Below are positions 1,681 through 63,749 of a stretch of DNA of 64,000 nt, piece after piece; position 1 is the first letter of the stretch, and each line of letters begins with the position of its first letter. The notes beneath the pieces were generated by a model. The model was not told the origin of the DNA. It ran no database searches and was given only the letters and a program-made list of their open reading frames with translations. Both the position numbers and the translations under genes were made by a program. The stretch is from an uncultured virus (IMG/VR IMGVR_UViG_2703719318_000005). Taxonomy: Duplodnaviria; Heunggongvirae; Uroviricota; Caudoviricetes. Where the stretch lies: the IMG/VR virus record IMGVR_UViG_2703719318_000005. One strand, written 5' to 3'.

Positions 1681-1733
1681 GGGTAATTTCTATTTGGTTT
1701 GTGAATTATATAATTATTAAGGTAGGGATCAGA

Positions 1734-3368
1734 ATGAAGGCAGCTATATATTCTCGTAAAAGCAAATATACTGGCAAGGGCGAAAGCATTGAAAATCAAA
1801 TTCAGTTATGCAAAGAATATGGATTGAAGTATTTAGAAATGTCCAAAGAGGATTTTATTGTATACGAAGATGAGGGCTTTTCAGGTGGAAATACTAAAAG
1901 ACCTCAATTTCAGAAAATGTTAAAGGATGCTAAAGAGAGAAAGTTTAATATATTGATATGCTATAGATTAGATAGAATAAGCAGAAATGTATCGGATTTT
2001 TCTAATTTGATCAATGATTTAAATAGATATAGTGTGGATTTTGTTTCTATCAGAGAACAGTTTGATACTACTACGCCAATGGGGAGAGCTATGATGTATA
2101 TAGCATCCGTTTTTTCTCAATTGGAGAGAGAAACTATTGCTGAAAGAATAAGAGATAATATGATAGAGCTTGCTAAGACCGGAAGATGGCTTGGGGGAAT
2201 TACACCTACTGGTTTTCAATCGGAAGCTATAATAAAGGTGGATTCAGGTGGAAAAGAAAGAAAAATGTTTAAATTATCTGTTGTTGAGGAAGAAATTAAT
2301 GTAGTTAAACTAATTTATAATAAATATATTGAGTTGAAATCAATAACTAAAGTTGAAAAATATTTAATAATTAATAAGATCAATACTAAAAACGGACTAG
2401 ATTTTCAAAGATATTCATTGAAGTTTTTACTTGGAAACCCTGTATACGCTGTAGCTGATAAAAATATGTATGAGTATTTAATTAGTAAAAATTATGAGGT
2501 TTATTCAGAATTAAAAGATTTTAATGGAATACATGGACTCATAGCCTACAATAAAACCTGTCAAAATAAAGAACAAAGTATAAATAGATTTAGAAATTCA
2601 AGCGAATGGATTATAGCTGTTGGAAAGCATCAGGGGGTTATTCCAAGTGATATTTGGATTGAGGCACAGAATTTATTAGAACAAAATAAATCAAAGGCCT
2701 ATAGGAAAGTTAAAAGTAATCAATCTATTTTATCTGGTGTTTTAAGGTGTGCATATTGTGGAAGTTATATGAGACCAAAGGCAGTGCAAAGAAAAAATTC
2801 TGATGGTGAACAGGTTTTTTATTATTTGTGTGAAATGAAAGAAAAAAGCAAAAAAACTCGCTGTAATGTTTCAAATATTAATGGAAATGTTTTAGATAAA
2901 TTAATAATTAACGAATTGAAAAAAATCATCAAAGAAAAATTCCCCTTATTTCAGGATATGAATTTTAAAAAAACATTAATAGAATGTAATTATATGGGCT
3001 CAGAAAATGAATTAATAGAAAAGAAAATATCTGAAATTGATTTATCTATTATGAATATAATGAGTTCAATTGAAAAAGGTCAGCCAGAAAGTGTTTTAGA
3101 AATAATGTATAAACGTATGGAGAAGCTTGACAAAGAAAAGAAGGATTTAAATAAAAGGTTGTCACAAGCAAATAGTGTAGGTAAAAATTCTAAGTCTAAC
3201 TCCATAAATATGGAATTTATTTATAAGAGCTTATGTAGTTTTAATGATAGTTCCTGGGAGCTTATGAATGTAGAGGATAAAAGAAACCTAATAAAGAGTG
3301 TGGTAGATAAAATTTTATGGGATGGTAAAAAAATTGATATGCTATTATTGGGAAGTGAAATATCCTGA
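1734..3368 (+). CDS. spoIVCA: Large serine recombinase, SpoIVCA-like
   Basis: AIYSRKS catalytic Ser motif, DEGFSGG, RLDRISR, recombinase domain, zinc ribbon (CAYCG...YYLC), coiled coil. Confidence 0.85.
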   Translation: MKAAIYSRKSKYTGKGESIENQIQLCKEYGLKYLEMSKEDFIVYEDEGFSGGNTKRPQFQKMLKDAKERKFNILICYRLDRISRNVSDFSNLINDLNRYSVDFVSIREQFDTTTPMGRAMMYIASVFSQLERETIAERIRDNMIELAKTGRWLGGITPTGFQSEAIIKVDSGGKERKMFKLSVVEEEINVVKLIYNKYIELKSITKVEKYLIINKINTKNGLDFQRYSLKFLLGNPVYAVADKNMYEYLISKNYEVYSELKDFNGIHGLIAYNKTCQNKEQSINRFRNSSEWIIAVGKHQGVIPSDIWIEAQNLLEQNKSKAYRKVKSNQSILSGVLRCAYCGSYMRPKAVQRKNSDGEQVFYYLCEMKEKSKKTRCNVSNINGNVLDKLIINELKKIIKEKFPLFQDMNFKKTLIECNYMGSENELIEKKISEIDLSIMNIMSSIEKGQPESVLEIMYKRMEKLDKEKKDLNKRLSQANSVGKNSKSNSINMEFIYKSLCSFNDSSWELMNVEDKRNLIKSVVDKILWDGKKIDMLLLGSEIS

Positions 3369-3394
3369 GCTTAAAATGTTTCCGGAGTGTGAGA

Positions 3395-3493
3395 ATAGAA
3401 AATGAGATACTAATGCTTATAAGAAATAATAAAAAGAGTAAAAATGAGGTATACCTTCAAGATCCAATTGGTGTAGACAAGGAAGGTAATGAA
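3395..3493 (+). other. sigK: Internal fragment of sigK (middle piece of a split gene)
   Basis: Translates to IENEILMLIRNNKKSKNEVYLQDPIGVDKEGNE, matching the conserved SigK segment ARCIENEILM...DPIGxDKEGNEISL; flanked by non-sigK DNA and an in-frame TAA. Confidence 0.92.
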
Positions 3494-3520
3494 TAACATC
3501 TATGATGTTAGACATATACC
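3488..3520. other. Putative attL of the prophage
   Basis: sigK homology stops after AATGAA; followed by palindrome TAACATC-TAT-GATGTTA and the integrase stop codon. Confidence 0.6.
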
Positions 3521-5029
3521 TCAAAACCTTGTATATAGCTGTAAATCAAAGTCATCGTTACGTTGATTTTTTGATTTTATATACTTAGCTTCTATCAAAA
3601 TACTTTTCAACAGCTGATTTTTTTCAGTAATATCCTTTGAACTTTTATATTCTTTAATAGCATCACGTATTTTTGATAAATTTAAGTTTTTGCTCTTGTC
3701 TTCCTTCTTTAGCAATTCTTTTAATGAATTCATTTCAGTACTTACTTTATTAGATCTATCTGCCAAATTATTCGAACGTTCAACAAATGTATTGTTATCA
3801 TATATTCCTTGCTCAAGTAAATCAAACAATTTCATTTTTTGACTATTTAGTGTTGATAATTTCTTTTCTAAAACTGATATCTGAATCTTATATGTATCAA
3901 TTTTAGAATTATTTTTATTGATTTTTTCCATATTTGACTCATAGTTGTTTAGTAGTGTTTCTAAAGCATTAAGTAGTGCTTTTTCAACATAATCAAATCG
4001 GGCACTTTTATTGCCACATTTTTTCATGCATATTATATGTGGAAGTCTGTTACCGTATTTTCTTAAAACCATTTTACTTCCACATACACCACATGTTATT
4101 ATACCTGCAAGGGGATTGACAGCACCATTTTTTAGCTGATATGGTACATGATATTTATTTTTTAATATTTCCTTAGCCTGATTAAATATCTCATCACTAA
4201 TTATAGGTTTATGTTTACCATCTGCTACAATCCATTCTGATTTGTTCCTTGTCCTAGTGTCTTTTACTTTGTTAGGATTTTTAGATTTTTTAATTTCTTT
4301 TTTCCTCCATGTTACTTTTCCTATATAAACAGGGTTTTTCAATATAAAAAGTATACTGCTAGATTCGAATTCTCTGCAATTTTTTGTGCTATATCCAAGA
4401 GCATTTAGACGATTTGCTATTATTCCTGCACCATTTCCGTCGGTATACAATTTAAAAATTAATTTTACTATTTCAGCTTCTTTAGGGTTTGGTTTTAGAG
4501 TTCTATTTTTATTTATAAAAGTTATATCATAGCCAAATGGGGGGTTAGCTGATATATAATTTCCATCTTCTATGCTTCTTACTCTGCCACCTTGCATACG
4601 TCTGTTTATCATTTTCAGTTCTTTTCTACTCATAAATGCTTCAAATTCAGAATACTCTTCGTCAAAATCGTTATCCAAATCATAAGTTTTCATTGGTGTT
4701 ATTATTTTTGTATGGGAATTTTTAAAGGTTTCTAAAACAATTCCTTGGTCTTTCATATCTCCACGACCTAAACGCTGCATATCCATAACTAAAACACCAG
4801 TATACATTTTAGCTTCAACTTCTTTTAAAAGCTCAAGCATTTTAGGTCTGAAAAATAAGCTCTCACCACTTACTATTTCTTCTTTTATTTCTACTATATT
4901 TAGTTTCTTTTCCTTAGCAAACTTAAGCAAAGCTTTTCTGTGTTTTAATAATGTTTCACCTTCACCTAAAGTTTTTTCTAGTTCCTCATCGGCTCTTGAT
5001 TTTCTTAAATAAATGCAAATCTTATCCAT
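3521..5029 (-). CDS. Prophage large serine integrase
   Basis: IYLRKSR, MDMQRLGRG, PPFGY, zinc ribbon CGVCG, coiled coil. Confidence 0.92.
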   Translation of the reverse strand: MDKICIYLRKSRADEELEKTLGEGETLLKHRKALLKFAKEKKLNIVEIKEEIVSGESLFFRPKMLELLKEVEAKMYTGVLVMDMQRLGRGDMKDQGIVLETFKNSHTKIITPMKTYDLDNDFDEEYSEFEAFMSRKELKMINRRMQGGRVRSIEDGNYISANPPFGYDITFINKNRTLKPNPKEAEIVKLIFKLYTDGNGAGIIANRLNALGYSTKNCREFESSSILFILKNPVYIGKVTWRKKEIKKSKNPNKVKDTRTRNKSEWIVADGKHKPIISDEIFNQAKEILKNKYHVPYQLKNGAVNPLAGIITCGVCGSKMVLRKYGNRLPHIICMKKCGNKSARFDYVEKALLNALETLLNNYESNMEKINKNNSKIDTYKIQISVLEKKLSTLNSQKMKLFDLLEQGIYDNNTFVERSNNLADRSNKVSTEMNSLKELLKKEDKSKNLNLSKIRDAIKEYKSSKDITEKNQLLKSILIEAKYIKSKNQRNDDFDLQLYTRF

Positions 5030-5049
5030 TAGCAACACTTCCATTAAAA

Positions 5050-5253
5050 TTAATTGTTTTCTTTATATTCAATTATATCGCTTATATTACATTTTAAGTA
5101 TTCACACAATTTATCTATTATTTGAAGCGCAATAAAGTCACCATTATTTATTCTTGTCATTGTGCTTTTACTGATTACTTTACTGACTACTAAGTCTTTT
5201 TTCTCTAAATCTTTATCTATAAGCGTTTTAAAAAAAGGTTTATAACTTATCAT
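5050..5253 (-). CDS. Cro/C1-type HTH protein (67 aa)
   Basis: MISYKPF...IIDKLCEYLKCNISDIIEY pattern; directly upstream of the integrase. Confidence 0.8.
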   Translation of the reverse strand: MISYKPFFKTLIDKDLEKKDLVVSKVISKSTMTRINNGDFIALQIIDKLCEYLKCNISDIIEYKENN

Positions 5254-5340
5254 AAAAAAACTCCCTTCATATCACGATATTATTGTAATGCAAATTACAT
5301 TACAAGTCAATACAATAGGAATATAAATAAAGCAAAAGGA

Positions 5341-5370
5341 TTGACTTCTGAACCTTATATGTGATATTAT
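5341..5370 (+). promoter_or_regulatory. SigA-type promoter for the HTH-TPR gene
   Basis: TTGACT-N18-TATTAT with extended TG. Confidence 0.5.
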
Positions 5371-5587
5371 GAATTTATGGAAATTTATTAAATAAATAAT
5401 AATAAATTTAAATGGCTGTAATAATTATAATTTTTTATAAAAATTGTTAATAATAGAGAAACTCTGTAGGCATATGGTCTCGCAAACTTCTACCTACAGA
5501 GTTAAAAGGGAAGTCCTTCCCCCTGACAATAATAACACATACAGCAAAAAATCGGAAGACTTCTATTTATAGAATAGGAGGATTAAT

Positions 5588-6775
5588 ATGTGTAAATTAG
5601 AACCTTATCAAAGGTTAAAAAAGATAGTAGAAGAATTAGGTGTAAGCCAAACAGAATTATCTTGTAAATATCTAGGGAGAGCAACTATAAACAAAATTCT
5701 TAATGGAGAGAGACCCTTAGGAGCAGCTCAGGCATATAAGTTTATACAAAGATTTAAAGACTTTGGGTATGATACAGATATTGAATTAATATTAGGCGTG
5801 CCTGCAAAAACTATAAATGGTATAGTAACGAAATTTTTAAGCAATACAAAGAAATATTACTTAGAGTTTGATGAATTGATAGACAAGTTATATAAGGATA
5901 AGGCTATAGAAGTTATTTGGGAAGTTATACAAGAATTAGATGACCAAGATGTTTATAAAAATGCAAATACTATATTGAAATATTTAACAAAATTAATGCA
6001 ATATGATTTAGATGAAAATACATATCTAGAAGTTAATTTAGAGCTGATTAAAATTTATACAGCAACAGGAAACTATGAACGTGCAATTTCAGGATTTAAT
6101 TCAGTTAAAAATTTTAATACATTAGATAGGGAGAGTAGAGTTAAGTGTCTTTTGAATGTAGCTTTAGCATACTACAATCTTAGAGAATATAAATTATCAA
6201 TAGATATTGCATCCAGAGTCATGAGACTTAGAATTTTTGATAAATACTATTTTAAAGCAGCAATAATAAAAGCTAATGTGCTTTACACAAAAGGCAGTAT
6301 TATGGCGAGTATTAAAGAGTATGAGAAAATTTCAATAACGGCCAAGAAACATAATTTCTTGAATTATGTTTCAACAAGTGAAAGCAACATAGGGTATGTG
6401 TTTACAGAACAAAATAAATTAGACTTAGCAAAAATATATTTGGACCAGGCAATGAAAAATTTTGATACATTAGATAACTATTACAAACTAAATGTTTATG
6501 ATAATGTATTCTATTTGAAACTTAAAAATAATACAGCCGATTTTAGTTCATTTGAAAAAGTAATGACTTTAGCTTTCAATGTTAATGATAATTTCAGGAT
6601 TAAAAATAATATAAAACAATTTGTAAGCTATGCTATTAAGAATAAAAAAAACAAAGAATTTTTTGCAAAGATATTAGGGTTCCTGAATCCAAAAGGCTTA
6701 GAATTAGAATCAAGTTTAAAATTAAAGATAATGGAATATTTAGCAGGTAAAACATTTGAAAACATGATAAAATAG
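5588..6775 (+). CDS. HTH plus TPR-repeat regulator, RRNPP/AimR-like peptide receptor
   Basis: N-terminal XRE-like HTH (LGVSQTELS...TINKILNGER) followed by TPR-like repeats (LNVALAYYNLREY, SNIGYVFTEQNKLDLAKIYLDQAM); followed by a small signal-peptide ORF. Confidence 0.8.
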   Translation: MCKLEPYQRLKKIVEELGVSQTELSCKYLGRATINKILNGERPLGAAQAYKFIQRFKDFGYDTDIELILGVPAKTINGIVTKFLSNTKKYYLEFDELIDKLYKDKAIEVIWEVIQELDDQDVYKNANTILKYLTKLMQYDLDENTYLEVNLELIKIYTATGNYERAISGFNSVKNFNTLDRESRVKCLLNVALAYYNLREYKLSIDIASRVMRLRIFDKYYFKAAIIKANVLYTKGSIMASIKEYEKISITAKKHNFLNYVSTSESNIGYVFTEQNKLDLAKIYLDQAMKNFDTLDNYYKLNVYDNVFYLKLKNNTADFSSFEKVMTLAFNVNDNFRIKNNIKQFVSYAIKNKKNKEFFAKILGFLNPKGLELESSLKLKIMEYLAGKTFENMIK

Positions 6776-6838
6776 CACTATACAATTGTGAAATATCACA
6801 CTTTTGTGATATACTAATTTTGAGGGGAGGGAATTTAT

Positions 6839-6943
6839 ATGAAAAAAATATTAGCAAGTAAAACAGTAGGTACTTTAGTAGCTGTAGCATTAATATTTAT
6901 ACCTGTTATAAGCTTTGTAATAGGAAGCCCGGGAGTTTCATAA
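6839..6943 (+). CDS. 34-aa secreted signalling pro-peptide (AimP/Phr-like)
   Basis: GGGGAGG RBS; MKKILASKTVGTLVAVALIFIPVISFVIGSPGVS has a basic N-terminus, hydrophobic core and short polar tail. Confidence 0.8.
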   Translation: MKKILASKTVGTLVAVALIFIPVISFVIGSPGVS

Positions 6944-6958
6944 AATTTAATAATGTGC

Positions 6959-7025
6959 AAGTGACATATTCGACAAAATGTATGTCACTTTTTATATTGT
7001 TTTACAGTTAAAAAAATGCTATAAC
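6959..7025 (+). promoter_or_regulatory. Inverted repeat (operator and/or terminator) followed by a SigA promoter
   Basis: AAGTGACATA-N12-TATGTCACTT, then TTGTTT-N17-TATAAC with extended TG. Confidence 0.6.
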
Positions 7026-7052
7026 ATATATAATATACTTGGGAGGTTATAT

Positions 7053-7172
7053 ATGGAGGAACTGAAGAAAATTTTGATTCGAATTGAGAACATAGAAAAA
7101 CTAGCTGAACATATTAATATTGCTGTATACAATATAGAAAATAAAATACTTAAATCCAAAAAAGAACAATAA
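7053..7172 (+). CDS. 39-aa protein in an aimX-like position
   Basis: GGGAGG RBS; converges with the repressor gene. Confidence 0.6.
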   Translation: MEELKKILIRIENIEKLAEHINIAVYNIENKILKSKKEQ

Positions 7173-7174
7173 AT

Positions 7175-7552
7175 TTATTGCTCTTTTTTTATTTTCTCTT
7201 CTTCAATTATCTTATTTAATGTTTCTTTTATCGTATAGGTGATTAATTTTTGTAAATCACTGTCTATATTCTGAGTATTTGTAATTAATCCTTTTTGTAC
7301 TAATCGTTTAAGCAGTTCATCTACTACATATTCTTTTCTTTTTTCAATTTCAACATCTAATTTATCAACTCTTAATTCATCCAATGTCAAATTAAAATAA
7401 TTTGCTAAAGTTTGTAGGGTTTCATCAGAACCAGTTTTGTGACCTTCTTCTATTTTACTAATCATACTTACCGACAATCCAGTTTCATCAGCAAGTTGTT
7501 TTTGTGTTATACCCTTTGATTTTCTTAATTTCTTAAGCTTTTCACTTAGCAT
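7175..7552 (-). CDS. CI-like XRE repressor
   Basis: MLSEKLKKLRKSKGITQKQLADETGLSVSMISKIEEG HTH; AAGGAG RBS; divergent from the Cro-like gene. Confidence 0.85.
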   Translation of the reverse strand: MLSEKLKKLRKSKGITQKQLADETGLSVSMISKIEEGHKTGSDETLQTLANYFNLTLDELRVDKLDVEIEKRKEYVVDELLKRLVQKGLITNTQNIDSDLQKLITYTIKETLNKIIEEEKIKKEQ

Positions 7553-7584
7553 TTTATTTCTCCTTTTTTGTTTTTCTGTGTCTA

Positions 7585-7733
7585 TTTTGTCACAGTCTGT
7601 GACAAAAGTCAAGGAAAGCAGACTATTTTTAGGCAAAATGTGTGTAAATAAATAAATTGTACAAGCCAGATAAGCACCAAGAGGTGATAAATTATCACGA
7701 TATGTTTGAATATTATCACCAATCGAGTGATAA
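7585..7733. promoter_or_regulatory. Genetic switch operators
   Basis: Palindromes TTTTGTCACAG-T-CTGTGACAAAA (7585-7607), GTGATAA-A-TTATCAC (7684-7698), TTATCAC-N7-GTGATAA (7713-7733). Confidence 0.7.
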
Positions 7734-7757
7734 TTGTACCAGAGAGGAGGAAAGTAC

Positions 7758-8054
7758 ATGGAAGATAGACAACATATAACTACTTTTAAAATTCTAAGAC
7801 TTGCATCAGGAAAAACAGCCAAAAGCGTAGCATCAGCATTAAATCTTAAAGAATCCAGCTACCGAAGATACGAGTGCTCAGATAGATTACCATCTGTAAA
7901 CACATTACAAAGGTTAGCTACGACATACAAATGCTCATTAGAAGCAGTAACACACGCCTACAACTATCACAAAAGTGTGAGAGACATGAAAAGGAAGAGT
8001 AAATTAAGGAACAGATTAAAGAAAAAAAGCCAAATTAATAATTATGGTGCATAG
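7758..8054 (+). CDS. Cro-like XRE regulator
   Basis: HTH (LRLASGKTAKSVASALNLKESSYRRYE); AGGAGG RBS. Confidence 0.8.
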   Translation: MEDRQHITTFKILRLASGKTAKSVASALNLKESSYRRYECSDRLPSVNTLQRLATTYKCSLEAVTHAYNYHKSVRDMKRKSKLRNRLKKKSQINNYGA

Positions 8055-8095
8055 TATGAAAGTAAAGTGAATAAAATTTTAATGAGGTGGTGTAC

Positions 8096-8245
8096 ATGCC
8101 TAATGTAACAATTATAAGACCTAATATCACCCCAGAGCAAGAAAAGAAAGCACTTGAGTTTTTTTCAGCTGCTTTAGGTAGTTTAATTGAAAAAAAGTAT
8201 GGAATTGAAGTTAGAATTGAAACACATAGGAAAACATCAAAATGA
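8096..8245 (+). CDS. 49-aa hypothetical protein
   Basis: GAGGTGG RBS; MPNVTIIRPNITPEQEKKALE... Confidence 0.6.
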   Translation: MPNVTIIRPNITPEQEKKALEFFSAALGSLIEKKYGIEVRIETHRKTSK

Positions 8246-8507
8246 TTAAGTTTGAGATTAAAAAGTGATTAACTTTAAATAGGCTATTCAGCCTATTATA
8301 AAAAACTATTATGTAAATAAAAATAAACACTTATCTAATATATTCTATTAATTATCATTCAAGAATATGACAAAAACACTTCAATAAAATCTTAAGACAG
8401 CGCAAGTGGAACATAAAAGAGTGTCAGTACTCTACTGGTTACTTACTATTGTTACTGGTTACTGATCTATTGATACTGTAGGAATTTAAATTAGGAGGAA
8501 TTGAATA

Positions 8508-9140: not shown

Positions 9141-9926
9141 TTGAATTTAACACCAATAGAGTTTAAGAAACAAAGAGTTTTAAGTACGGAATTATTAGCA
9201 AAAGTATATGAAACAGATATGAACAACATTCAAGCTAACTTTTCAAGAAATAAAGATCACTTTAAAGAAGGAATACATTACTATTTACTTCAAGGCGAGG
9301 AATTAAAGCAGTTTAAGAACCAACCTACTATTAGTCAGCTGGTTTCTAAACATGTAAGCCAACTATACTTGTGGACAGAGCGGGGAGCAAATCGACATTG
9401 TAAAATATTAGATACAGATAAAGCGTGGGAACAATTTGACAACTTAGAAGAAACTTATTTTAGAGTTAAAAAAGCAGAACCACAATGCATAGAGGACTTA
9501 ATTATTATGCAAGCACAAAGCCTTAAAGATATGCGATTACAGCTACAAGAAACTAAGGAGCAGACAACAGCAGTAAAACAAGAAGTACAAGCTATGCGTG
9601 ATGTAATTACTATAAAACCAAGTGAAGAGTGGAGAAAGCAGACCAATGTACTTATAGCAAAAATATGTATGAGAGTAAAAGACTATAAAAAACCTAAGGA
9701 GGAAATTTATAAAGCACTTCAAGAGCGTGCAGGATGCGATTTAAAGATTAGGCTTAAGAATATGAGGGCGAGGTTACTACTTAATGGATCTACTAAAAGT
9801 AAGGTGGACAAGCTTAATTATTTAGATGTAATCACAGAAGATAAAAAGCTTATTGAAATATATGTAGCCATAGTTAAAGATATTGCCATTAAAAACAGTA
9901 TAAAGGTTAAGGAGGAAATTCAGTAA
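9141..9926 (+). CDS. ORF6N-domain antirepressor-like protein
   Basis: QRVLSTELLAKVY, NFSRNKDHF, LYLWTERGANRHCKILDTDKAW. Confidence 0.85.
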   Translation: MNLTPIEFKKQRVLSTELLAKVYETDMNNIQANFSRNKDHFKEGIHYYLLQGEELKQFKNQPTISQLVSKHVSQLYLWTERGANRHCKILDTDKAWEQFDNLEETYFRVKKAEPQCIEDLIIMQAQSLKDMRLQLQETKEQTTAVKQEVQAMRDVITIKPSEEWRKQTNVLIAKICMRVKDYKKPKEEIYKALQERAGCDLKIRLKNMRARLLLNGSTKSKVDKLNYLDVITEDKKLIEIYVAIVKDIAIKNSIKVKEEIQ

Positions 9927-18939: not shown

Positions 18940-19386
18940 GTGGTAAGTGAAGCAAAATTAAATAAGATGTTTAAGGGATTAGACAGTTTAGAACCAAATG
19001 CAGCCATAGCAAAAGCAGCAAGTAAATTTAAACTTTCTAAAAGCACAGTTAAAAATTATTACAGTGAGTGGAGGAGCAATTATATGGGTGAGAAATTAGT
19101 AGATTCAGTAAAGGAGAATAAATCGGCAACTAATAAAAAGAGTGTACAAACTAAAAATGAGCATACAGTATCCAAGGAGGACACAAAAGAAAATTTAGGA
19201 CTAACTATACAAGAAATTAGGCTCAACGGTGTTAATGGCGAATATAGAGTATGTAAAGAGGGTATAGAACTTCATGGAGAAGAACAAACACTAGCATTTC
19301 AAAATATAAAGCAGTGGGAAGAATTTAAAGCGGAAATAGACAGTGTCTTTGAATATGGCAAGAGTAATAAAATACTTGCTAGTTAG
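18940..19386 (+). CDS. Hypothetical phage protein
   Basis: ORF with RBS. Confidence 0.55.
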   Translation: MVSEAKLNKMFKGLDSLEPNAAIAKAASKFKLSKSTVKNYYSEWRSNYMGEKLVDSVKENKSATNKKSVQTKNEHTVSKEDTKENLGLTIQEIRLNGVNGEYRVCKEGIELHGEEQTLAFQNIKQWEEFKAEIDSVFEYGKSNKILAS

Positions 19387-19396
19387 GATGATAAGT

Positions 19397-20107
19397 ATGC
19401 TAGAACTAAATAAAATTTACAACATAGATTGCGAAGAAGGCATGAAGCAAATTCCGAATAAATATTTTGAATTAGCTATAGTTGATCCACCGTATTTCAA
19501 AGGACCCAATAGTCGAGGATATTATGGCAGGCGAATAAACAAGCTAAATATAAAAAGGCGTGACTATACAGAAATTAAAAGCTGGGATATACCAGACGAG
19601 CAGTACTTCAAAGAACTTAAAAGAGTATCAAGGAATCAAATTATATGGGGCATAAATTATTATGATGTTTATTTAGGACCTGGAAGGATTGTTTGGGACA
19701 AAGTTAACGGAAAAAGTTCTTATAGTGATTGTGAAATTGCTTACTGCAGTATGCATGATTCAACAAGGTTATTTAGATATATGTGGAATGGTATGAACCA
19801 AGGTAAGTCTATTAGTGAAGGATGGATAATGCAGGGTGATAAAGCAAAAAACGAAAAGAGAATACATCCAACGCAAAAGCCTGTTAACCTGTATAAATGG
19901 TTATTAATGAACTATGCAAATCAAGGAGATAAAATTTTAGATACTCATGTTGGAAGTGCATCAAGTTTAGTAGCATGTCATGAAATGGGTTTTGATTTCC
20001 TAGGATTTGAAAAGGATAAAAATATATTTGAGCTGGCCAGCAAAAGATTGTTTTCTTCAATGAGCCAAATTAATATGTTTAATTCTATTAAGGACGTGGT
20101 TATGTGA
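19397..20107 (+). CDS. N6A/N4C DNA methyltransferase (beta class)
   Basis: DPPY, HPTQKP, ILDTHVGSAS. Confidence 0.9.
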   Translation: MLELNKIYNIDCEEGMKQIPNKYFELAIVDPPYFKGPNSRGYYGRRINKLNIKRRDYTEIKSWDIPDEQYFKELKRVSRNQIIWGINYYDVYLGPGRIVWDKVNGKSSYSDCEIAYCSMHDSTRLFRYMWNGMNQGKSISEGWIMQGDKAKNEKRIHPTQKPVNLYKWLLMNYANQGDKILDTHVGSASSLVACHEMGFDFLGFEKDKNIFELASKRLFSSMSQINMFNSIKDVVM

Positions 20108-20589: not shown

Positions 20590-20799
20590 ATTCCTCTTTA
20601 AGAGGTTGGCATAGTAATATCTTAGGATAGCTTCTTAGGGTGTTATGAAAAATATAGGTTAAAACCGTAAAAGAGCACACCTAAGGGCAACCTTATCTTA
20701 TGAGCCTATAACGCAGATAACAGGGTCGTGAGGGTTAAAGTAAATCATAGGAATAAGAATGTTTTTGCCTATTCAGCTAAGCAATTTAAGTTGAATAGG
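20590..20799 (+). ncRNA. Putative structured RNA / leader
   Basis: GC-enriched intergenic region with several nested stems; the last hairpin reaches the downstream start codon. Confidence 0.4.
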
Positions 20800-21785
20800 T
20801 GAGAAAAGTGTTAGAACAAGATAGTAAATTAATTATAGCTGATGCATTAGGATCAGCAAGAAACAGAATCGAAAGCCACAATAGAATTGCAGTATCTATA
20901 AGTGGTGGAAGTGACAGCGATACGGTGCTTGATATTATAAAAAAATGTAAAACTGAAAAAGATATATTTTTTATAAATTTTAATACTGGATTAGAATATC
21001 AAGCAACTAAGGATCATTTAAAATATCTAGAAAATAAATATAAAATAAAAATAGAGACAATAAGACCTGAGAAGCCAGTACCATTATGTGTTAAGCAATA
21101 TGGAGAGCCGTTTCTTAACAAAAGAGCAAGCGAAATGATAATGCGATTGCAAAGACACAATTTCACCTGGGAAGATAAGAGTTTTGAAGAATTGTATAAA
21201 CAGTATCCTAATTGTAAGAGTGCTTTACGTTGGTGGTGTAATTGCTATGATAGCTACTCTTTAAATATAAGCAATAACAAATTTTTGAAAGAGTTTTTAA
21301 TTGAATATCCTCCAGAATTCCAAATATCAAATTTATGCTGTCATTACGCAAAGAAAGTAGTTGCAGCAGAATTCAATAAATCCCATAATATAGATTTGGT
21401 TGTAAATGGAATAAGAAAAGCAGAAGGAGGAATAAGATCAGTAAGCTACAAAAGTTGTTTTACACCAGCAAAAGATAAAAAAAAGTGTGATGTATATCGA
21501 CCTATATTTTGGTTTACAGACGATATAAAAAGGCAATATGAATTAGAAAATAATATAGTGCACAGCAAGTGCTATACGGAATATGGACTAAAGCGTACAG
21601 GCTGTACAGGATGCCCATATGGAAAAAACTTTGAGTTTGAATTAATGGTATTACAAAAGTATGAGCCTAAACTTTATAAAGCAGCGGCAAATGTTTTTAA
21701 GAATTCATATGAATACACTAGACAGTACAGGAAGTATGTTAAGCTAAAAAACAATAATGGCAATGTTCAACTATCATTGTTTTAA
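20799..21785 (+). CDS. PAPS reductase-family (PP-loop) protein
   Basis: SISGGSDS, NTGLEY, CCHYAKK, GIRKAEG, RTGCTGCP. Confidence 0.88.
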   Translation: MRKVLEQDSKLIIADALGSARNRIESHNRIAVSISGGSDSDTVLDIIKKCKTEKDIFFINFNTGLEYQATKDHLKYLENKYKIKIETIRPEKPVPLCVKQYGEPFLNKRASEMIMRLQRHNFTWEDKSFEELYKQYPNCKSALRWWCNCYDSYSLNISNNKFLKEFLIEYPPEFQISNLCCHYAKKVVAAEFNKSHNIDLVVNGIRKAEGGIRSVSYKSCFTPAKDKKKCDVYRPIFWFTDDIKRQYELENNIVHSKCYTEYGLKRTGCTGCPYGKNFEFELMVLQKYEPKLYKAAANVFKNSYEYTRQYRKYVKLKNNNGNVQLSLF

Positions 21786-26175: not shown

Positions 26176-26793
26176 ATGGAAATAAATAGAATGCTAGGTA
26201 TAACAGAAAGCTATAAAGCTCCAAAAACTATTATGGATATTTTATATGACCATGAAAAAAGGGAAAAAATATTTTTGGAATTTTTAAAGGTATACAGCAA
26301 TGATGTTTCTTATGATTGGTTTCATGAATATTTTGAAAATGAACATTCTGATAGGAAGGAAAAGAAACAGGATTTTACACCAAATTCGGTTTCGGATATT
26401 TTAACAAAGGTAGTAGATACTAAAGAGGGAACAGTGTATGATGTTGCATCAGGAACTGGTGGAATAATTATTCGAAAGTGGTGGGATGAATGTTCAAAAT
26501 CAACTCCATTTTCATACAGACCTAGCGAACATCTTTATTGTTGTGAGGAGCTTAGTGATAGAGCGATACCATTTCTACTTTTCAACTTAATGATAAGAGG
26601 CATGAACGCTATTGTTTTACATTGTGATATTTTATCAAGGGAATGCAAAGGAATCTTCTTTGTAAACAATGCAAAAGATGATTTGCTAAGTTTCTCAAGC
26701 TTAAATTTAATGCCCTATACAAAGAATGTTGAAGATTATTTTGAAGTAAAGTTTACCAATTTTAGGTATCCTTCAATAACGGAGGTGAGCTAA
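26176..26793 (+). CDS. Short N-6 DNA methylase-like protein
   Basis: QDFTPNSV, YDVASGTGG SAM-binding motif; no NPPY seen. Confidence 0.75.
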   Translation: MEINRMLGITESYKAPKTIMDILYDHEKREKIFLEFLKVYSNDVSYDWFHEYFENEHSDRKEKKQDFTPNSVSDILTKVVDTKEGTVYDVASGTGGIIIRKWWDECSKSTPFSYRPSEHLYCCEELSDRAIPFLLFNLMIRGMNAIVLHCDILSRECKGIFFVNNAKDDLLSFSSLNLMPYTKNVEDYFEVKFTNFRYPSITEVS

Positions 26794-26997
26794 ATGCAAG
26801 AATATAGAACCGAATATTGTTTGAAAGATGATGAAGCAGCATTTTACGAAGACGATAAAGTAGATATACAAAGTAATGATAAAAGAATAGTTGGAACTAT
26901 AGCAGTAATCACGGCTTACAGATTATTTATAGATACAGAAAAAGGAACACGTGATTTTGTAAACATAAGCGATATTAGGAGTGTGAAGAAGCTATGA
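26794..26997 (+). CDS. Hypothetical phage protein
   Basis: GGAGGTG RBS. Confidence 0.55.
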   Translation: MQEYRTEYCLKDDEAAFYEDDKVDIQSNDKRIVGTIAVITAYRLFIDTEKGTRDFVNISDIRSVKKL

Positions 26998-27923
26998 AGC
27001 TATCTGAATACTATGATAAATGGATTACAACTTATAAGAAAAATAACGTAAGATCAGTAACTTATCAAAAATATTTAATGACAGGTAAATCACTAAAAGA
27101 GATTGAACCTGATTGCGATATTTCCAAAATTGATAGAGGGATATATCAGAAAATTGTAAATAAATATGCTGAAGCACATGAACACTTAACAGTAATGGAT
27201 TTTCACAGACAAATTAGAGCTAGTGTTTTAGATGCAGCGGATGAAGGAATTATTGAAAGAGATTTTACAAGGAGAGTCCAAATTGGTGGGAAGCCAAAAA
27301 CTAGAAAGCTAAAAAAGTTTTTAGAAGAAGATGAAGCTAAAATATTTATTGCTGATTTAAATATCAATACCAAGGAACTTAATTGGGATCACTTCTTACT
27401 GTTATTAATTAATACTGGATTACGTTATGCTGAAGCATTAGCACTAACACCTAGTGATTTTGATTTTATAAGTAGAACAATTGATGTTAATAAATCGTAT
27501 GACTATAAGTCAAAAACCAAAACCAATAGATTTCAACCCACGAAAAATGTATCATCAAATCGTATTATATCACTAGATTTAAAAACAGCATGGATATTAA
27601 GACCGCTGATAGAAAAGCTTAATCCTACAGAACCGATATTTCCTTACTGGTATGGTGGGGGGCATGTAATAATATATAATTCGACCATAAATGATATTAT
27701 AGCTAGACATTGTAATAACGTAGGAATCAACAAAATAACAGTGCATGGGCTAAGACATACACATGCGAGTCTTTTAATAGCGAAGAAAGTTAGTATACAA
27801 GCAGTGGCTAAAAGATTGGGACATGCTAATACAATAACAACTCAGTCGACGTATATTCATCCACTGAAAGCAGCAATGAAGGAAGCAGACGAAAAGATTG
27901 AAAGCATTTTAGTAAATATGTAA
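26994..27923 (+). CDS. Tyrosine recombinase
   Basis: TGLRYAE, HGLRHTHAS, RLGH, TYIH catalytic residues. Confidence 0.92.
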   Translation: MKLSEYYDKWITTYKKNNVRSVTYQKYLMTGKSLKEIEPDCDISKIDRGIYQKIVNKYAEAHEHLTVMDFHRQIRASVLDAADEGIIERDFTRRVQIGGKPKTRKLKKFLEEDEAKIFIADLNINTKELNWDHFLLLLINTGLRYAEALALTPSDFDFISRTIDVNKSYDYKSKTKTNRFQPTKNVSSNRIISLDLKTAWILRPLIEKLNPTEPIFPYWYGGGHVIIYNSTINDIIARHCNNVGINKITVHGLRHTHASLLIAKKVSIQAVAKRLGHANTITTQSTYIHPLKAAMKEADEKIESILVNM

Positions 27924-57376: not shown

Positions 57377-57619
57377 TAATAAGTTTTTAAATATAAATTA
57401 CTTAAAAATAGTTATTTTATATAAAAACAAATCATAAATAAAACAATGTAAATAAATTGAATTAAAGTAAAAATAAATACTATAGTGTAAATTTTGTTGA
57501 ATCTTACAAGTACATGCTTTATAATAAAGTGAAAGGTAATCGAAAAAGATTACTTTATGCGATATAGAATTATATATAATATCTAAGAACTTATGATTTG
57601 GATGGGGGAAACTTATTTT

Positions 57620-58699
57620 ATGGAGTTGAAGGAATATAAAACTATATTAATGGAGACAATTACTAATGAATATCCTTTGTATTTTCAAAAAACTTTGTTG
57701 AAAAAATTTCAAGATAAGGGTTTGATTTTTAGGGATGGAAGAAAAACTAATGTTGATAATCTTTTAGATGTTACATGTTATAGTAAAGAAAGAGATCAAT
57801 TAAAGCTTGCAATAGAGAGCATGGATAATTGTATTAAAGAATGTGAAGAATTTGAGTATGAAAAAGGATATAGATATTGTGCTATTTTTAAATTTAGGCA
57901 ATATAATGAAAATATTGTTAATAAATTAGTAAATGAAAAACAAATTTTTAAGTATAATGAGAATAATATTTTTGATGATAATTTGTATGAATATCCAGCG
58001 TTTCCAACATATAAAGAAAACGGAGATTATGCATTTTTAAAGTTTGGTTTTATGCTGAATAATAAAGAAGAAACTAATAGCTTTATGAAATATCCTGTTT
58101 TAGTGGTAATAAATAAAAAATTAAAAATAATAGAAATAAGATTAGATACTGTATCTTTTAAATATAAGAACAAGGAAAATTTTTATGAAGATAAAATTGG
58201 TAGAGTAAAATCATGGATTAGAAGGTATTTAGATTTATCAATAGAAGATATAGATTTTCAAGCTGTAACTAAATACATGAGAAGTAATAAAGCTGATGAA
58301 GTTACTATAACTGCCCTTAAAATGGTTAGAGATGGTATGGTGGCAAGTTTAGATGCGTGTTCTAATGAAGAAATGACTATACCAATTTTGGGTGAATTAA
58401 AAGAATTAATATTAAAATGTAATACTATGTTTGTGGTTAACGATGATACTATCAAAATAAAAGAATTGCTAAACAATTTTATAAAAAAGATAGAAGAAAC
58501 TTCTGACTTACCATCGGTAAAAATATTTTGGCATATAAAAAGAATAAAACTATTAGTTATGCATTCATATAAAGAAAAATCATACAGCTTATTTAAATAT
58601 TCTGATGAATTGGAAGATAAGGAGAGAATGAATTATGTTACAAACTACCTTGTTGAATGTGAAGAAGAGCTTAGAAAACAATTCCAAATTGAACAATAA
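57620..58699 (+). CDS. Hypothetical protein, gene 1 of candidate defence operon
   Basis: AT-rich ORF with GGGGGA RBS, overlaps gene 2. Confidence 0.7.
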   Translation: MELKEYKTILMETITNEYPLYFQKTLLKKFQDKGLIFRDGRKTNVDNLLDVTCYSKERDQLKLAIESMDNCIKECEEFEYEKGYRYCAIFKFRQYNENIVNKLVNEKQIFKYNENNIFDDNLYEYPAFPTYKENGDYAFLKFGFMLNNKEETNSFMKYPVLVVINKKLKIIEIRLDTVSFKYKNKENFYEDKIGRVKSWIRRYLDLSIEDIDFQAVTKYMRSNKADEVTITALKMVRDGMVASLDACSNEEMTIPILGELKELILKCNTMFVVNDDTIKIKELLNNFIKKIEETSDLPSVKIFWHIKRIKLLVMHSYKEKSYSLFKYSDELEDKERMNYVTNYLVECEEELRKQFQIEQ

Positions 58700-59003
58700 A
58701 CAGATAGAGTTATTAGTAGACAACATGGAGTTATGGGATTTAAATCATATAGTATATCCAAGCCAAATTAAAAGCATGTTATTCATTAAATATAAGAGTG
58801 TGTATGAAGTTTTAGATGTAATAAGAGATTTAGGAATTTTAGAATATAATTATCAAATTTATTGCAGTAAATGTGAACGATTTTTAGACAAAAAAATATT
58901 AAGAAGCTTAAATGAATTTCCAGAAGTATTATACTGTGATGAAAATCATAAATTGAAATCTTTAGAAGATACTATTTTAATATATAGGGTGATTAAAGAA
59001 TGA
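58635..59003 (+). CDS. Small protein with Cys/His motif, gene 2 of operon
   Basis: CSKC...CDENH; ATGA overlap with gene 3. Confidence 0.65.
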   Translation: MLQTTLLNVKKSLENNSKLNNKQIELLVDNMELWDLNHIVYPSQIKSMLFIKYKSVYEVLDVIRDLGILEYNYQIYCSKCERFLDKKILRSLNEFPEVLYCDENHKLKSLEDTILIYRVIKE

Positions 59004-59785
59004 GTGACTTAGGAGGATTAAGTCTGTTAGAAAAGATAAATATGGATATAGAAAAAGCTGATTTCAATAGTGATAAAGAGCGTGAAGATATCAAACTCAA
59101 AGTATTAAATAAATATACTCGATGGAGTTGCAATGATTATTTACAGTATGAAAGATTACTTGATAAATTGAAGGAAGAGAAAGATAAGAAACACTGTAGT
59201 CAGGTTGAAATTGGCAAGGCATTAGAAAATATAGTGACATTTATATTTGAAAAAAGTTATTTTTATAAGGTATATCCTAATAAAAGGACAAGTACTCATG
59301 AAATAGATCAGTTTGTAGTGCTAAGTGATAAGGGAGAACAAGCAATTTATGATTATCACTTTTCACGTAAATTATTAATATCAGAGCAAGACTATTTTTT
59401 ATGTGAGTGTAAAAATTATAAAACCAAAGTTCAAGCTACATGGGTTGGAAAGTTCTATACTTTGCTAAAAGTATCAGGAGATTGTACTGTAGGTATAATT
59501 TTTTCGTGTAATGGACTAACAGGAAAAGAAAATAATTGGTATGATGGACATGGATTGACTAAAACAATTTATAGAATAAGCAATAGTACCCAACACACAT
59601 ATATTCTTGATTTCAATCTAAATGACTTTAAGCTATTATTAGACAATAAAAATACAATATTTAGTATAATACTTAATAAGAAAAGGGCGTTAGTAGCTAA
59701 TGTAAAATCAGTAAATTTGATAGATAGTGATTACCTAAACAATAATGAAATTGAGAAAATATATAAAGAAATATCTCAAGGATAG
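59000..59785 (+). CDS. PD-(D/E)xK restriction-endonuclease-like protein
   Basis: GKALE...HEIDQFV...CECKNY...GIIFS, Mrr-like arrangement. Confidence 0.75.
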   Translation: MSDLGGLSLLEKINMDIEKADFNSDKEREDIKLKVLNKYTRWSCNDYLQYERLLDKLKEEKDKKHCSQVEIGKALENIVTFIFEKSYFYKVYPNKRTSTHEIDQFVVLSDKGEQAIYDYHFSRKLLISEQDYFLCECKNYKTKVQATWVGKFYTLLKVSGDCTVGIIFSCNGLTGKENNWYDGHGLTKTIYRISNSTQHTYILDFNLNDFKLLLDNKNTIFSIILNKKRALVANVKSVNLIDSDYLNNNEIEKIYKEISQG

Positions 59786-62666: not shown

Positions 62667-63749
62667 TTAAATATCCTCATGAGATTTTTTACGTGATATT
62701 TTTCTATAGTCCTTATATGAAGTAAGTAGTTCTTTTATCTCATATATCACTAAAAGTGAAGGTACTTCCATCTCAGTTAGAAATTCATCTAAAGCTAATT
62801 TTTCTCCATCTGCATCATCCTCAAGTTTCAAGTTATAAAGTATTCCGTACCCTTGTCTTATACGCTTGTTTGATATAGCTAACTCTATAGTTTTAAATAC
62901 TTCATAATTTGCTATATCTGTATCTTTGAAAGTATACTTCAAGACTTCTACAATTCCAGAGCTGTCCATTTCCCTTATATCCGCAATAAAACAATCTTCT
63001 ATTTTAAAATTACTATAGTTTTTCTCATTTACTCGTAGTTCTTTAAAGTACATAGTCCATAGTTTCATAATCTGTATATCAATTAAACTATAAAAATTAT
63101 AAGATTTTCTTTTATCACTGTACTCTCCGACAATATTTTTTTGAAATAAACTAGGATCGTATTCATGACTGAAAAATAAGCAATGAAAATGTGGATGATA
63201 AGTATTACTTTCTTCGTTATAGGTAATTTCAAGTACTTTTAAAGCACCTTCAAACCCCATTAATCTATCCTTAAAACCTTTTGTGGTTTTGCCTTCTAAA
63301 TCGTATGAATACGCACCGAATAATTTTTTAAAAGATTTATTCATTTTTTCTATTGTTCTTTTAAGTTCTATTCCTTGTACATTAGGAATTGTAAGTGTAA
63401 CCAAGTAAGGGTAATATCCATCTAGCAGTAGATTATTAAGCGGTACTTTAAGATTATGAATGGCACAGGCTAAATTAAATTTGCGGCAATTGGGACAAAA
63501 ACGGTTATTCATGCACCTGTTAACTTTTTGTAAGTCTAATAACTTATTATTTTTATATAGATCCCAAAGCCATATATCCATACAGTTTTTTATACGTTCA
63601 CTTTTCTTCTTTAAAGTTTCGGAATATGCAAAATGCTGTTCGCTTCTCATTTCTTCACTCATTCTTATATACCATGCTGCATATTTACTATTATAGTCAA
63701 TTCTTTTTTGCTCCATTTTTTCAAGAGTTTCGTTCTCAAAATCCATCAA
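62667..63749 (-). CDS. rep: Rolling-circle replication initiator (Rep_1 / pC194 family)
   Basis: C..RFCPNC, LVTLTIPN (motif I), LEITYN..YHPHFH (HUH), EVLKYTFKD (motif III). Confidence 0.9.
   Translation of the reverse strand: MMDFENETLEKMEQKRIDYNSKYAAWYIRMSEEMRSEQHFAYSETLKKKSERIKNCMDIWLWDLYKNNKLLDLQKVNRCMNNRFCPNCRKFNLACAIHNLKVPLNNLLLDGYYPYLVTLTIPNVQGIELKRTIEKMNKSFKKLFGAYSYDLEGKTTKGFKDRLMGFEGALKVLEITYNEESNTYHPHFHCLFFSHEYDPSLFQKNIVGEYSDKRKSYNFYSLIDIQIMKLWTMYFKELRVNEKNYSNFKIEDCFIADIREMDSSGIVEVLKYTFKDTDIANYEVFKTIELAISNKRIRQGYGILYNLKLEDDADGEKLALDEFLTEMEVPSLLVIYEIKELLTSYKDYRKISRKKSHEDI

Follow-up and report, generated by a model that had tools for sequence, protein, structure and literature searches.

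Control of the choice between lysis and lysogeny by a secreted peptide has so far been demonstrated in AimR-bearing Bacillus phages only, and AimR systems are confined to Bacilli as far as the cited parts of the literature go (PMC13389391, PMC13748020, PMC9765709). In the Bacillus phages phi106, phiW23, Wbeta and Waukesha92 the system has the form of an extended arbitrium module, aimR-aimP-aimX-aimC-aimL, and Kabel et al. found this five-gene order in about 75% of the Bacillus arbitrium systems and showed that AimX, a small protein, binds to AimC and prevents its oligomerisation (bioRxiv 10.1101/2025.11.23.689978). Their survey comprised 5,491 Bacillus genomes, and the parts of the preprint covered here do not mention Clostridia. 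The stretch of DNA that was analysed, in the following the window, consists of 64,000 nucleotides of an uncultured caudoviricete (IMG/VR record IMGVR_UViG_2703719318_000005) and represents a Clostridium prophage with terminase, portal, capsid and endolysin genes. A five-gene module at 5588-8054 follows the extended arbitrium order: a receptor with a helix-turn-helix (HTH) domain and tetratricopeptide repeats (TPR), a secreted propeptide, a terminator-like hairpin, an open reading frame (ORF) for 39 amino acids (aa) that is termed X here, a short repressor on the opposite strand, and a cro-like gene (Table 1).

An earlier note on this DNA had proposed an arbitrium-like peptide communication for a smaller cassette. 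The HTH-TPR ORF, the 34-aa ORF, the inverted repeat and the 39-aa ORF are all present at their positions, and the proposal is supported by the TPR fold of the receptor, by a peptide ORF next to it in seven of seven loci, and by peptide tails that vary with receptor distance. The module probably acts as a peptide switch between lysis and lysogeny, in which the free receptor would turn on X, X would neutralise the repressor and thereby free the early operon, the peptide would favour lysogeny, and the host regulator Spo0A would gate X.

Conservation of the module and nature of the receptor

When viral contigs were scanned seven times with the receptor, the cro-like protein and the repressor as queries, six IMG/VR records with a receptor of this family were obtained (L001, L002, L005, L008, L014 and L058); duplicate loci of the same records (L003, L004, L007, L011-L013, L056, L057, L059, L060) were counted once, and L006 was dropped as a chance match. 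The order receptor-propeptide-X-repressor-cro together with the hairpin is found in all six and thus, including the window, in seven of seven loci, always with five intact ORFs and a cro-like homologue at the same place. Two lineages can be distinguished, the first consisting of the window and L001 with receptors that are 76% identical, the second of the other five loci, whose receptors share 55-91% identity among themselves and 24-26% with the first lineage. In the second lineage, the genes upstream of the module are ParM-like, ParR-like and Rep-like (L002 1136-3826; L008 1260-3840; L058 1445-3838), and it is because of the ParM-like and Rep-like genes, which were tested with hidden Markov models (HMMs) in L002 only and stayed below the cut-off, that this lineage is suggested to represent clostridial phage-plasmids. 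The receptor is absent from all 38 control loci that were matched only via HTH similarity of the repressor.

A profile-free search of 1.84 billion representative sequences gave 37 receptor matches at E <= 0.001, and 20 full-length sequences out of these were aligned together with two closer relatives. TPR_12 of Pfam is detected in 22 and HTH_3 in 17 of these 22 homologues, the window protein itself being below the curated cut-offs, and the residues N190, N267 and N302, which presumably have a role in peptide binding, are kept in at least 90% of them. The structure model (predicted local distance difference test 91) and the fold search recovered a TPR superhelix with an N-terminal HTH, as would be expected for a peptide receptor, and the nearest bacterial structures are RapF (Z 19.1, root mean square deviation 7.2, 306 aligned residues) and NprR (Z 18.8, root mean square deviation 8.5, 315 aligned). 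Although Rap and NprR lead the bacterial matches, they are level with generic TPR proteins, and the match must be regarded as generic because the eukaryotic LGN ties with both. The single receptor had no significant match in the PDB by phmmer, and its matches in the ESM Atlas are unnamed Bacillota HTH-TPR clusters only.

At the level of sequence, the comparison with AimR was negative. Neither of the AimR HMMs, NF038310 and PF22871, matched at E <= 1 in the four of seven receptors that were tested (window, L002, L005, L008), whereas the AimR proteins of Wbeta and Waukesha92 reached 282 and 376 bits in NCBIfam at an NF038310 cut-off of 70 bits. As both HMMs fail while the Bacillus controls score well above the cut-off, the receptor, which is of the RRNPP type, belongs to a lineage that, judged from its sequence, is separate from AimR. 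A membership in the AimR family was rejected on these grounds and on an hhalign probability of 2% with the AimR of Waukesha92, which relates to the HTH part only. AimR entries are not among the matches listed in four receptor fold searches, a result that is compatible with an AimR fold.

The propeptide and its counterpart in Clostridium acetobutylicum

The 34-aa ORF follows a ribosome-binding site (RBS) and has the signal-peptide shape that had been noticed before: hydropathy gives a basic start (three K/R and no D/E among the first eight residues), a hydrophobic core (best 12-residue hydropathy 3.2) and the tail FVIGSPGVS. It had been regarded as unannotated, which has to be corrected, as the exact sequences of the peptide and of the 39-aa protein exist in NCBI/UniRef, where they have no assigned function. 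By its anatomy, the propeptide would give rise to a C-terminal 5-9-mer as the mature peptide, and as there is almost no spacer after the hydrophobic core, we take peptides of this kind (34-36 aa) to be SHP-like. In all seven loci the receptor is adjoined by a short ORF that, by hydropathy, begins with basic residues, continues with a hydrophobic core and ends in a C-terminal signal, and the tails diverge as the receptors diverge: receptors with 91% identity (L008/L014) have the same tail, those of the window and L001 differ by one change (FVIGSPGVS versus FVIGSPSVS), and at 55-59% identity the tail is a different one (RVSEPGTGGAI in L005), the others being GTSDPGGLPPL, GKSDPGGLPPL (twice) and STDPGTLPPL (L058). 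Within the propeptide, the tail motif is repeated in L058 (DPGTLPPL twice) and in L005 (SEPGT twice), and repeated signal motifs are known from RRNPPA propeptides (PMC9765709). The last 11 codons of the window and L001 differ by five synonymous and two non-synonymous changes, which indicates that the tail is under purifying selection. The candidate promoter of the propeptide gene is overlapped by an inverted repeat, ATATCACA-N4-TGTGATAT (6793-6812), that is also kept in L001.

In C. acetobutylicum, Kotte et al. described 11 RRNPP regulators, and they list no peptide for CA_C0957, CA_C0958 and CA_C1949 (PMC7376267). Proteins named C. acetobutylicum match the repressor (AAK79909.1), the peptide and X of L001 exactly, and the receptor cluster includes AAK79911.1. 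By elimination, and by the numbering of the genes, the L001 receptor is probably CA_C1949, and it is adjoined by a peptide ORF ending in ...IGSPSVS; a receptor published as peptide-less would thus probably have an adjoining propeptide and a candidate ligand, and this in a harmless and genetically tractable industrial organism, with possible relevance for the induction of prophages during solvent fermentations. RRNPP_detector with its RBS filter off gave one prediction in the C. acetobutylicum genome beyond the described pairs (PMC10075063), and this may be the L001 pair. The locus tags were found in the literature only in Kotte et al.

It is most improbable that the module is a decayed or orphan system without signalling. 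Such a view could refer to CA_C1949, for which Kotte et al. found no peptide ORF (PMC7376267), and to the few relatives that were found, but the five ORFs are intact throughout, the peptide tail is apparently selected, and contigs from RNA libraries cover the peptide, X and repressor of L001 in four of four runs from four studies (chosen from 24 listed; presence only, as the data are unstranded and have no DNA control). A gap in this coverage at L001 4281-4341 and contig edges close to predicted starts were given no weight as evidence.

The earlier note had considered lysis-lysogeny or excision as the controlled process, and of these lysis-lysogeny is supported and excision is judged the less likely target. 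For a pair that, like Qsr, controls the integrase and excision or host genes for sporulation or solvents and is merely placed beside the immunity region, one could argue that the module adjoins the integrase, that the left prophage end abuts a sigK fragment, and that the prophage-borne QsrG has been linked to sporulation (bioRxiv 10.1101/2021.07.15.452460, PMC10075063). In the second lineage, however, ParM-like and Rep-like genes replace the integrase upstream while the five-gene order is still intact, and the peptides do not have the conserved L, P and terminal W of Qsp, those of the window lineage also not its length of 39-50 aa, so that such a role is improbable.

From the hairpin to the repressor

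The inverted repeat between propeptide and X has the 10-bp arms that the earlier note had seen; they are perfect (6959-6968 and 6981-6990), and five T follow the repeat (6989-6993). The 109-nt spacer folds on its own with a z of only -1.6, and evidence beyond chance therefore comes from the comparison: in an ungapped alignment the stem register is constant, both partners are changed in five of 11 pairs, and pairing is retained in 98.5% of the cells, a level that was reached by none of 500 shuffles and compares with 26-65% in slid controls; these are six loci from two lineages and hence few independent events. The T run directly follows the stem in seven of seven loci. Rfam gave nothing at gathering score over 5000-8200. 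Also phi3T (PMC10769878) and phi106 have a terminator between the peptide gene and aimX.

The hairpin contains a sequence that agrees perfectly with the Spo0A box, TGTCGAA, one of two such copies in the 64-kb window. Of the seven loci, five have the perfect box, L008 has TGTTGAA (one mismatch) and L014 two mismatches, whereas only 3 of the 38 control loci have a perfect box within 470 nt downstream of their HTH gene. The motif TATTC(G/A)A, with TTCGACA being the reverse of the box, is retained across three different stems; one lineage has part of it in the stem, whereas the other has it in the loop. The box is 20-21 nt upstream of the -35 element of X in the four perfect loci counted, and that of L058 aligns with these.

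The inverted repeat is thus better explained as the stem of a terminator that also contains a Spo0A box than as an operator of the receptor and nothing else. It is rather unlikely that the repeat is instead an operator of the receptor itself, with TTCGACA resembling a -35 element or occurring by chance. Symmetric changes would suit an operator as well as an RNA stem, TCGACA-17-TATATT (6970-6998) scores 10 of 12 as a promoter, and the box is imperfect in L008 and L014; on the other hand, the T run adjoins the stem in every locus, a -10 at matching spacing is not kept in L001, L005 and L058, the motif persists in spite of the changing stems and positions, and TGTTGAA, as present in L008, has been proven to be a Spo0A site of phage Nf (PMC2731898).

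Spo0A may well bind at the box in the hairpin, as the conservation of the motif suggests. If Spo0A is bound, repression is the somewhat better guess, although reverse-oriented 0A boxes upstream of promoters can also activate. In the phages phi29 and Nf, the suppression of lysis involves Spo0A boxes that lie 26-27 bp upstream of an early -35 (PMC2731898; also PMC12991052).

For X, the earlier note had assumed a good SigA promoter, but the -35 is weak (TTGTTT, 6997-7002) and combined with an extended -10 (TG-c-TATAAC, 7017-7025), and a consensus scan, whose 21 promoter-like matches in 5000-8500 are at chance level (23.9 in shuffles), does not include it. Support for this promoter therefore is its position, which is kept in seven of seven loci. 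The element downstream of the terminator reads as a promoter and, in the case of L008, also as a palindrome, ATTGTA-N18-TACAAT. The chances are about even that the receptor switches on X by activating this weak promoter, and read-through of the terminator, by analogy to AimR, is a more tentative option.

An ORF of 39-41 aa with an RBS and EELK or a similar sequence is found at the X position in all seven loci, and X has the size (below 75 aa) and position of an AimX in the extended arbitrium. It meets the CI-like repressor gene head-on, stop to stop, as described before. The repressor (125 aa) is within the AimC range of 80-140 aa and matches HTH families only, no peptidase domain being found. 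Its best PDB match is 9SF2_A (Phage Phi106 repressor in complex with AimX; fold E 4e-4, 29% identity; profile E 6e-14), and SinR/SinI is its third-ranked fold match. X most likely acts as an antirepressor of the AimX type and belongs to a module of five genes, to which the cro-like gene at 7758 has to be counted. Both X and the repressor end in KKEQ, which is kept in L001 and absent from the second lineage; this shared ending exists because the stop-codon palindrome dictates both ends. A mimicry of the repressor tail by X, which had been seen by eye, was rejected (hhalign probability 0.7%).

Alternatively, with the same signal and receptor, the output could be antisense transcription into the repressor gene, with the 39-aa ORF being incidental. 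The head-on arrangement, which in the second lineage is even a 4-nt overlap, would permit this, X evolves rapidly (between window and L001, 7 codon changes are synonymous and 13 non-synonymous), and an earlier model for Bacillus was of this kind; yet the ORF and its RBS are kept in seven of seven loci, a hairpin spans the facing stops in the window and L001, and start-codon mutants in Bacillus show that the protein acts, not the RNA (for model and mutants, bioRxiv 10.1101/2025.11.23.689978). An antisense output is thus very improbable.

With X as an antirepressor, the propeptide would be exported and cut to a short C-terminal peptide. As long as the peptide is scarce, the free receptor would bind DNA at or just behind the hairpin and turn on X, and X would bind the C-terminal part of the repressor and prevent its oligomerisation, as deduced from the Bacillus experiments, which would free the cro-like early operon and lead to lysis. 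Accumulated peptide would enter the TPR groove and inactivate the receptor, so that lysogeny is favoured. As host input, Spo0A~P would probably act on the box within the loop, and a damping of lysis in sporulating cells is its most likely effect. In the divergent control region between repressor and cro-like gene, palindromes are candidate repressor operators, and a similar TCAC-N6-GTGA is present in the other lineage. The cro-like gene is followed in the early operon by an anti-repressor-family gene and replication genes.

Several points weigh against this scheme. The seven loci represent only two lineages, most of the 37 receptor matches are without genomic context, and no further loci were found in genome-contig, metagenome, viral, INPHARED and PLSDB scans, which depend on short exact motifs or on tblastn similarity, so that absence does not follow from them. 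The structure matches of the receptor are generic TPR matches, an operator of the receptor was not identified in the locus, and because the receptor is not AimR, sign and mechanism of AimR cannot simply be transferred. The profile match of the repressor to the AimC of phi106 is limited to the HTH part (positions 3-73). For X, the PDB gave no match to AimX by sequence and the profile comparison with the repressor only the low probability mentioned above, the X-repressor interaction being proposed by analogy. Finally, phi3T has no promoter after the terminator, whereas the window seems to have one.

Neighbouring features and comparison with known systems

Table 1. Positions of the module and of other features in the window (+, -, strand;., no strand)
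Feature	Position	Strand	Details
Receptor	5588..6775	+	395 aa, N-terminal XRE HTH and TPR superhelix; RRNPP type, not AimR family
Propeptide	6839..6943	+	34 aa; RBS 6822-6830; tail ...SFVIGSPGVS
Terminator-like hairpin	6959..6993	+	10-11 bp stem and T run, between propeptide and small ORF
39-aa ORF (X)	7053..7172	+	AimX-like candidate antirepressor; RBS 7041-7046
Repressor, AimC-like	7175..7552	-	125 aa, HTH and helical C-terminal part
Cro-like HTH protein, AimL-like	7758..8054	+	98 aa, first gene of early operon
Candidate propeptide promoter	6788..6815	+	Extended -10 TG-a-TATACT; overlapped by inverted repeat; kept in L001
Spo0A-box sequence	6969..6975	-	TGTCGAA, perfect, in hairpin loop; consensus from PMC2731898
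Candidate small-ORF promoter	6997..7025	+	TTGTTT-17-TATAAC, extended -10; also candidate receptor site
Palindrome over two facing stop codons	7158..7189	.	Possible two-way terminator; window and L001 only
Divergent control region, candidate repressor operators	7588..7732	.	Palindromes 7588-7604, 7684-7698, 7714-7732; kept in L001
ORF6N anti-repressor-family protein	9141..9926	+	In early operon
Candidate receptor promoter	5341..5370	+	TTGACT-18-TG..TATTAT; 10 of 12 in consensus scan; same motif in L001
Hairpin in receptor leader	5460..5503	.	11-bp arms; 22-nt loop, which is inverted in L001
67-aa Cro/C1 HTH protein	5050..5253	-	HTH_26 E 7e-12; also beside recombinase in L001 (1739-1996)
Large serine recombinase, prophage integrase	3521..5044	-	Pfam Resolvase, Recombinase, Zn ribbon
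Host sigK internal fragment at left prophage junction	3389..3496	+	TIGR02846 positions 109-141, E 3e-15; 25 bp from integrase stop codon

In the leader of the receptor gene, the loop of the hairpin is inverted between the window and L001 (2154-2196) and, by eye, also between L002 (3836-3876) and L008 (3861-3900), and a micro-inversion between the hairpin arms is therefore possible in both lineages; this hairpin has no Rfam match. At the left end, a second large serine recombinase (1701-3368) is followed by the sigK fragment of 35 codons that ends at the prophage integrase, and sigK appears to be cut by two elements, a skin-like element and then the prophage as the second one. Neither the window nor the end of G001 yielded the 3' part of sigK; the right junction is not reached, and the insertion in sigK is therefore deduced from the left junction.

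A tyrosine integrase (PHROG 1; 26994-27923) is located amid the early and replication region, although the prophage already has its serine integrase, and the replication region contains a PAPS-reductase-like ORF with weak NCBIfam matches and two DNA methyltransferase-like ORFs (20799-21785, 19343-20107, 26176-26793). A cargo block after the lysis genes (57593-59785) encodes proteins of 368, 122 and 261 aa, the last one being PD-(D/E)XK nuclease-like by eye; two proteins of the block that were tested had no NCBIfam match, and a defence system is possible. On the right side, a rolling-circle-type Rep-like ORF and, beyond the window in G001, an FtsK-like ORF and small genes can be seen by eye (62667-63749 and L055 1094-2924), and by these labels the region may be a further integrative element.

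No paper was found that describes an arbitrium-type module in Clostridia or a Spo0A link of such a module. Prophage-borne RRNPP pairs of Clostridium, such as QsrG, have been predicted earlier and linked to sporulation, and the supplement of that study may list the pair (bioRxiv 10.1101/2021.07.15.452460). The logic of the switch is known; what appears to be new is the lineage of the receptor, the class of the host and the input from Spo0A. A matching module of five genes whose receptor is not AimR, occurring in prophages and probable phage-plasmids of Clostridium, would mean that the design extends beyond the AimR family and escapes surveys with AimR HMMs, and with the conserved box the long-discussed link between phage dormancy and sporulation could be addressed at a single 7-bp site. 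If X is indeed gated by Spo0A, the phage would integrate its own density with the sporulation decision of the host, and a prophage that lies in sigK could stay non-lytic during excision for spore formation.

Like the window, Qsr/Qsp of C. acetobutylicum combines an HTH-TPR receptor with a downstream signal-peptide ORF, and CA_C1949 is among its 11 candidates (PMC7376267), but Qsp has another length and conserved ending, whereas the window-type peptide of 34-36 aa lies in a phage immunity region. SinR-SinI also has an XRE repressor with a helical C-terminal part, but is a chromosomal biofilm switch, and in the window the comparison of X with the repressor tail showed no similarity in sequence. 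The phages phi29 and Nf share the 0A box upstream of an early lytic -35 (26-27 bp there, 20-21 bp in the window; PMC2731898), but have neither peptide signal nor repressor switch. In phi3T and SPbeta, a receptor-controlled terminator separates aimP and aimX, as the terminator-like hairpin of the window may do for propeptide and X, but AimX acts there on MazF or as RNA, and AimR binds downstream of the terminator (PMC10769878). The closest system is the extended arbitrium, with which the window shares gene order and strands, the short repressor without autocleavage domain, the small ORF facing it, the terminator after the peptide, the cro-like gene that heads the early operon, and a putative site for a host regulator beside X. 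The window differs in its receptor, its Clostridium host, its apparent internal X promoter, and the Spo0A-box sequence at the place where phi106 has a LexA site. It can be considered, with some caution, that this is a second, clostridial arbitrium, in which the switch of antirepressor, short repressor and Cro has been combined with a receptor unrelated to AimR, by convergence or by a swap, and is gated by Spo0A instead of LexA.

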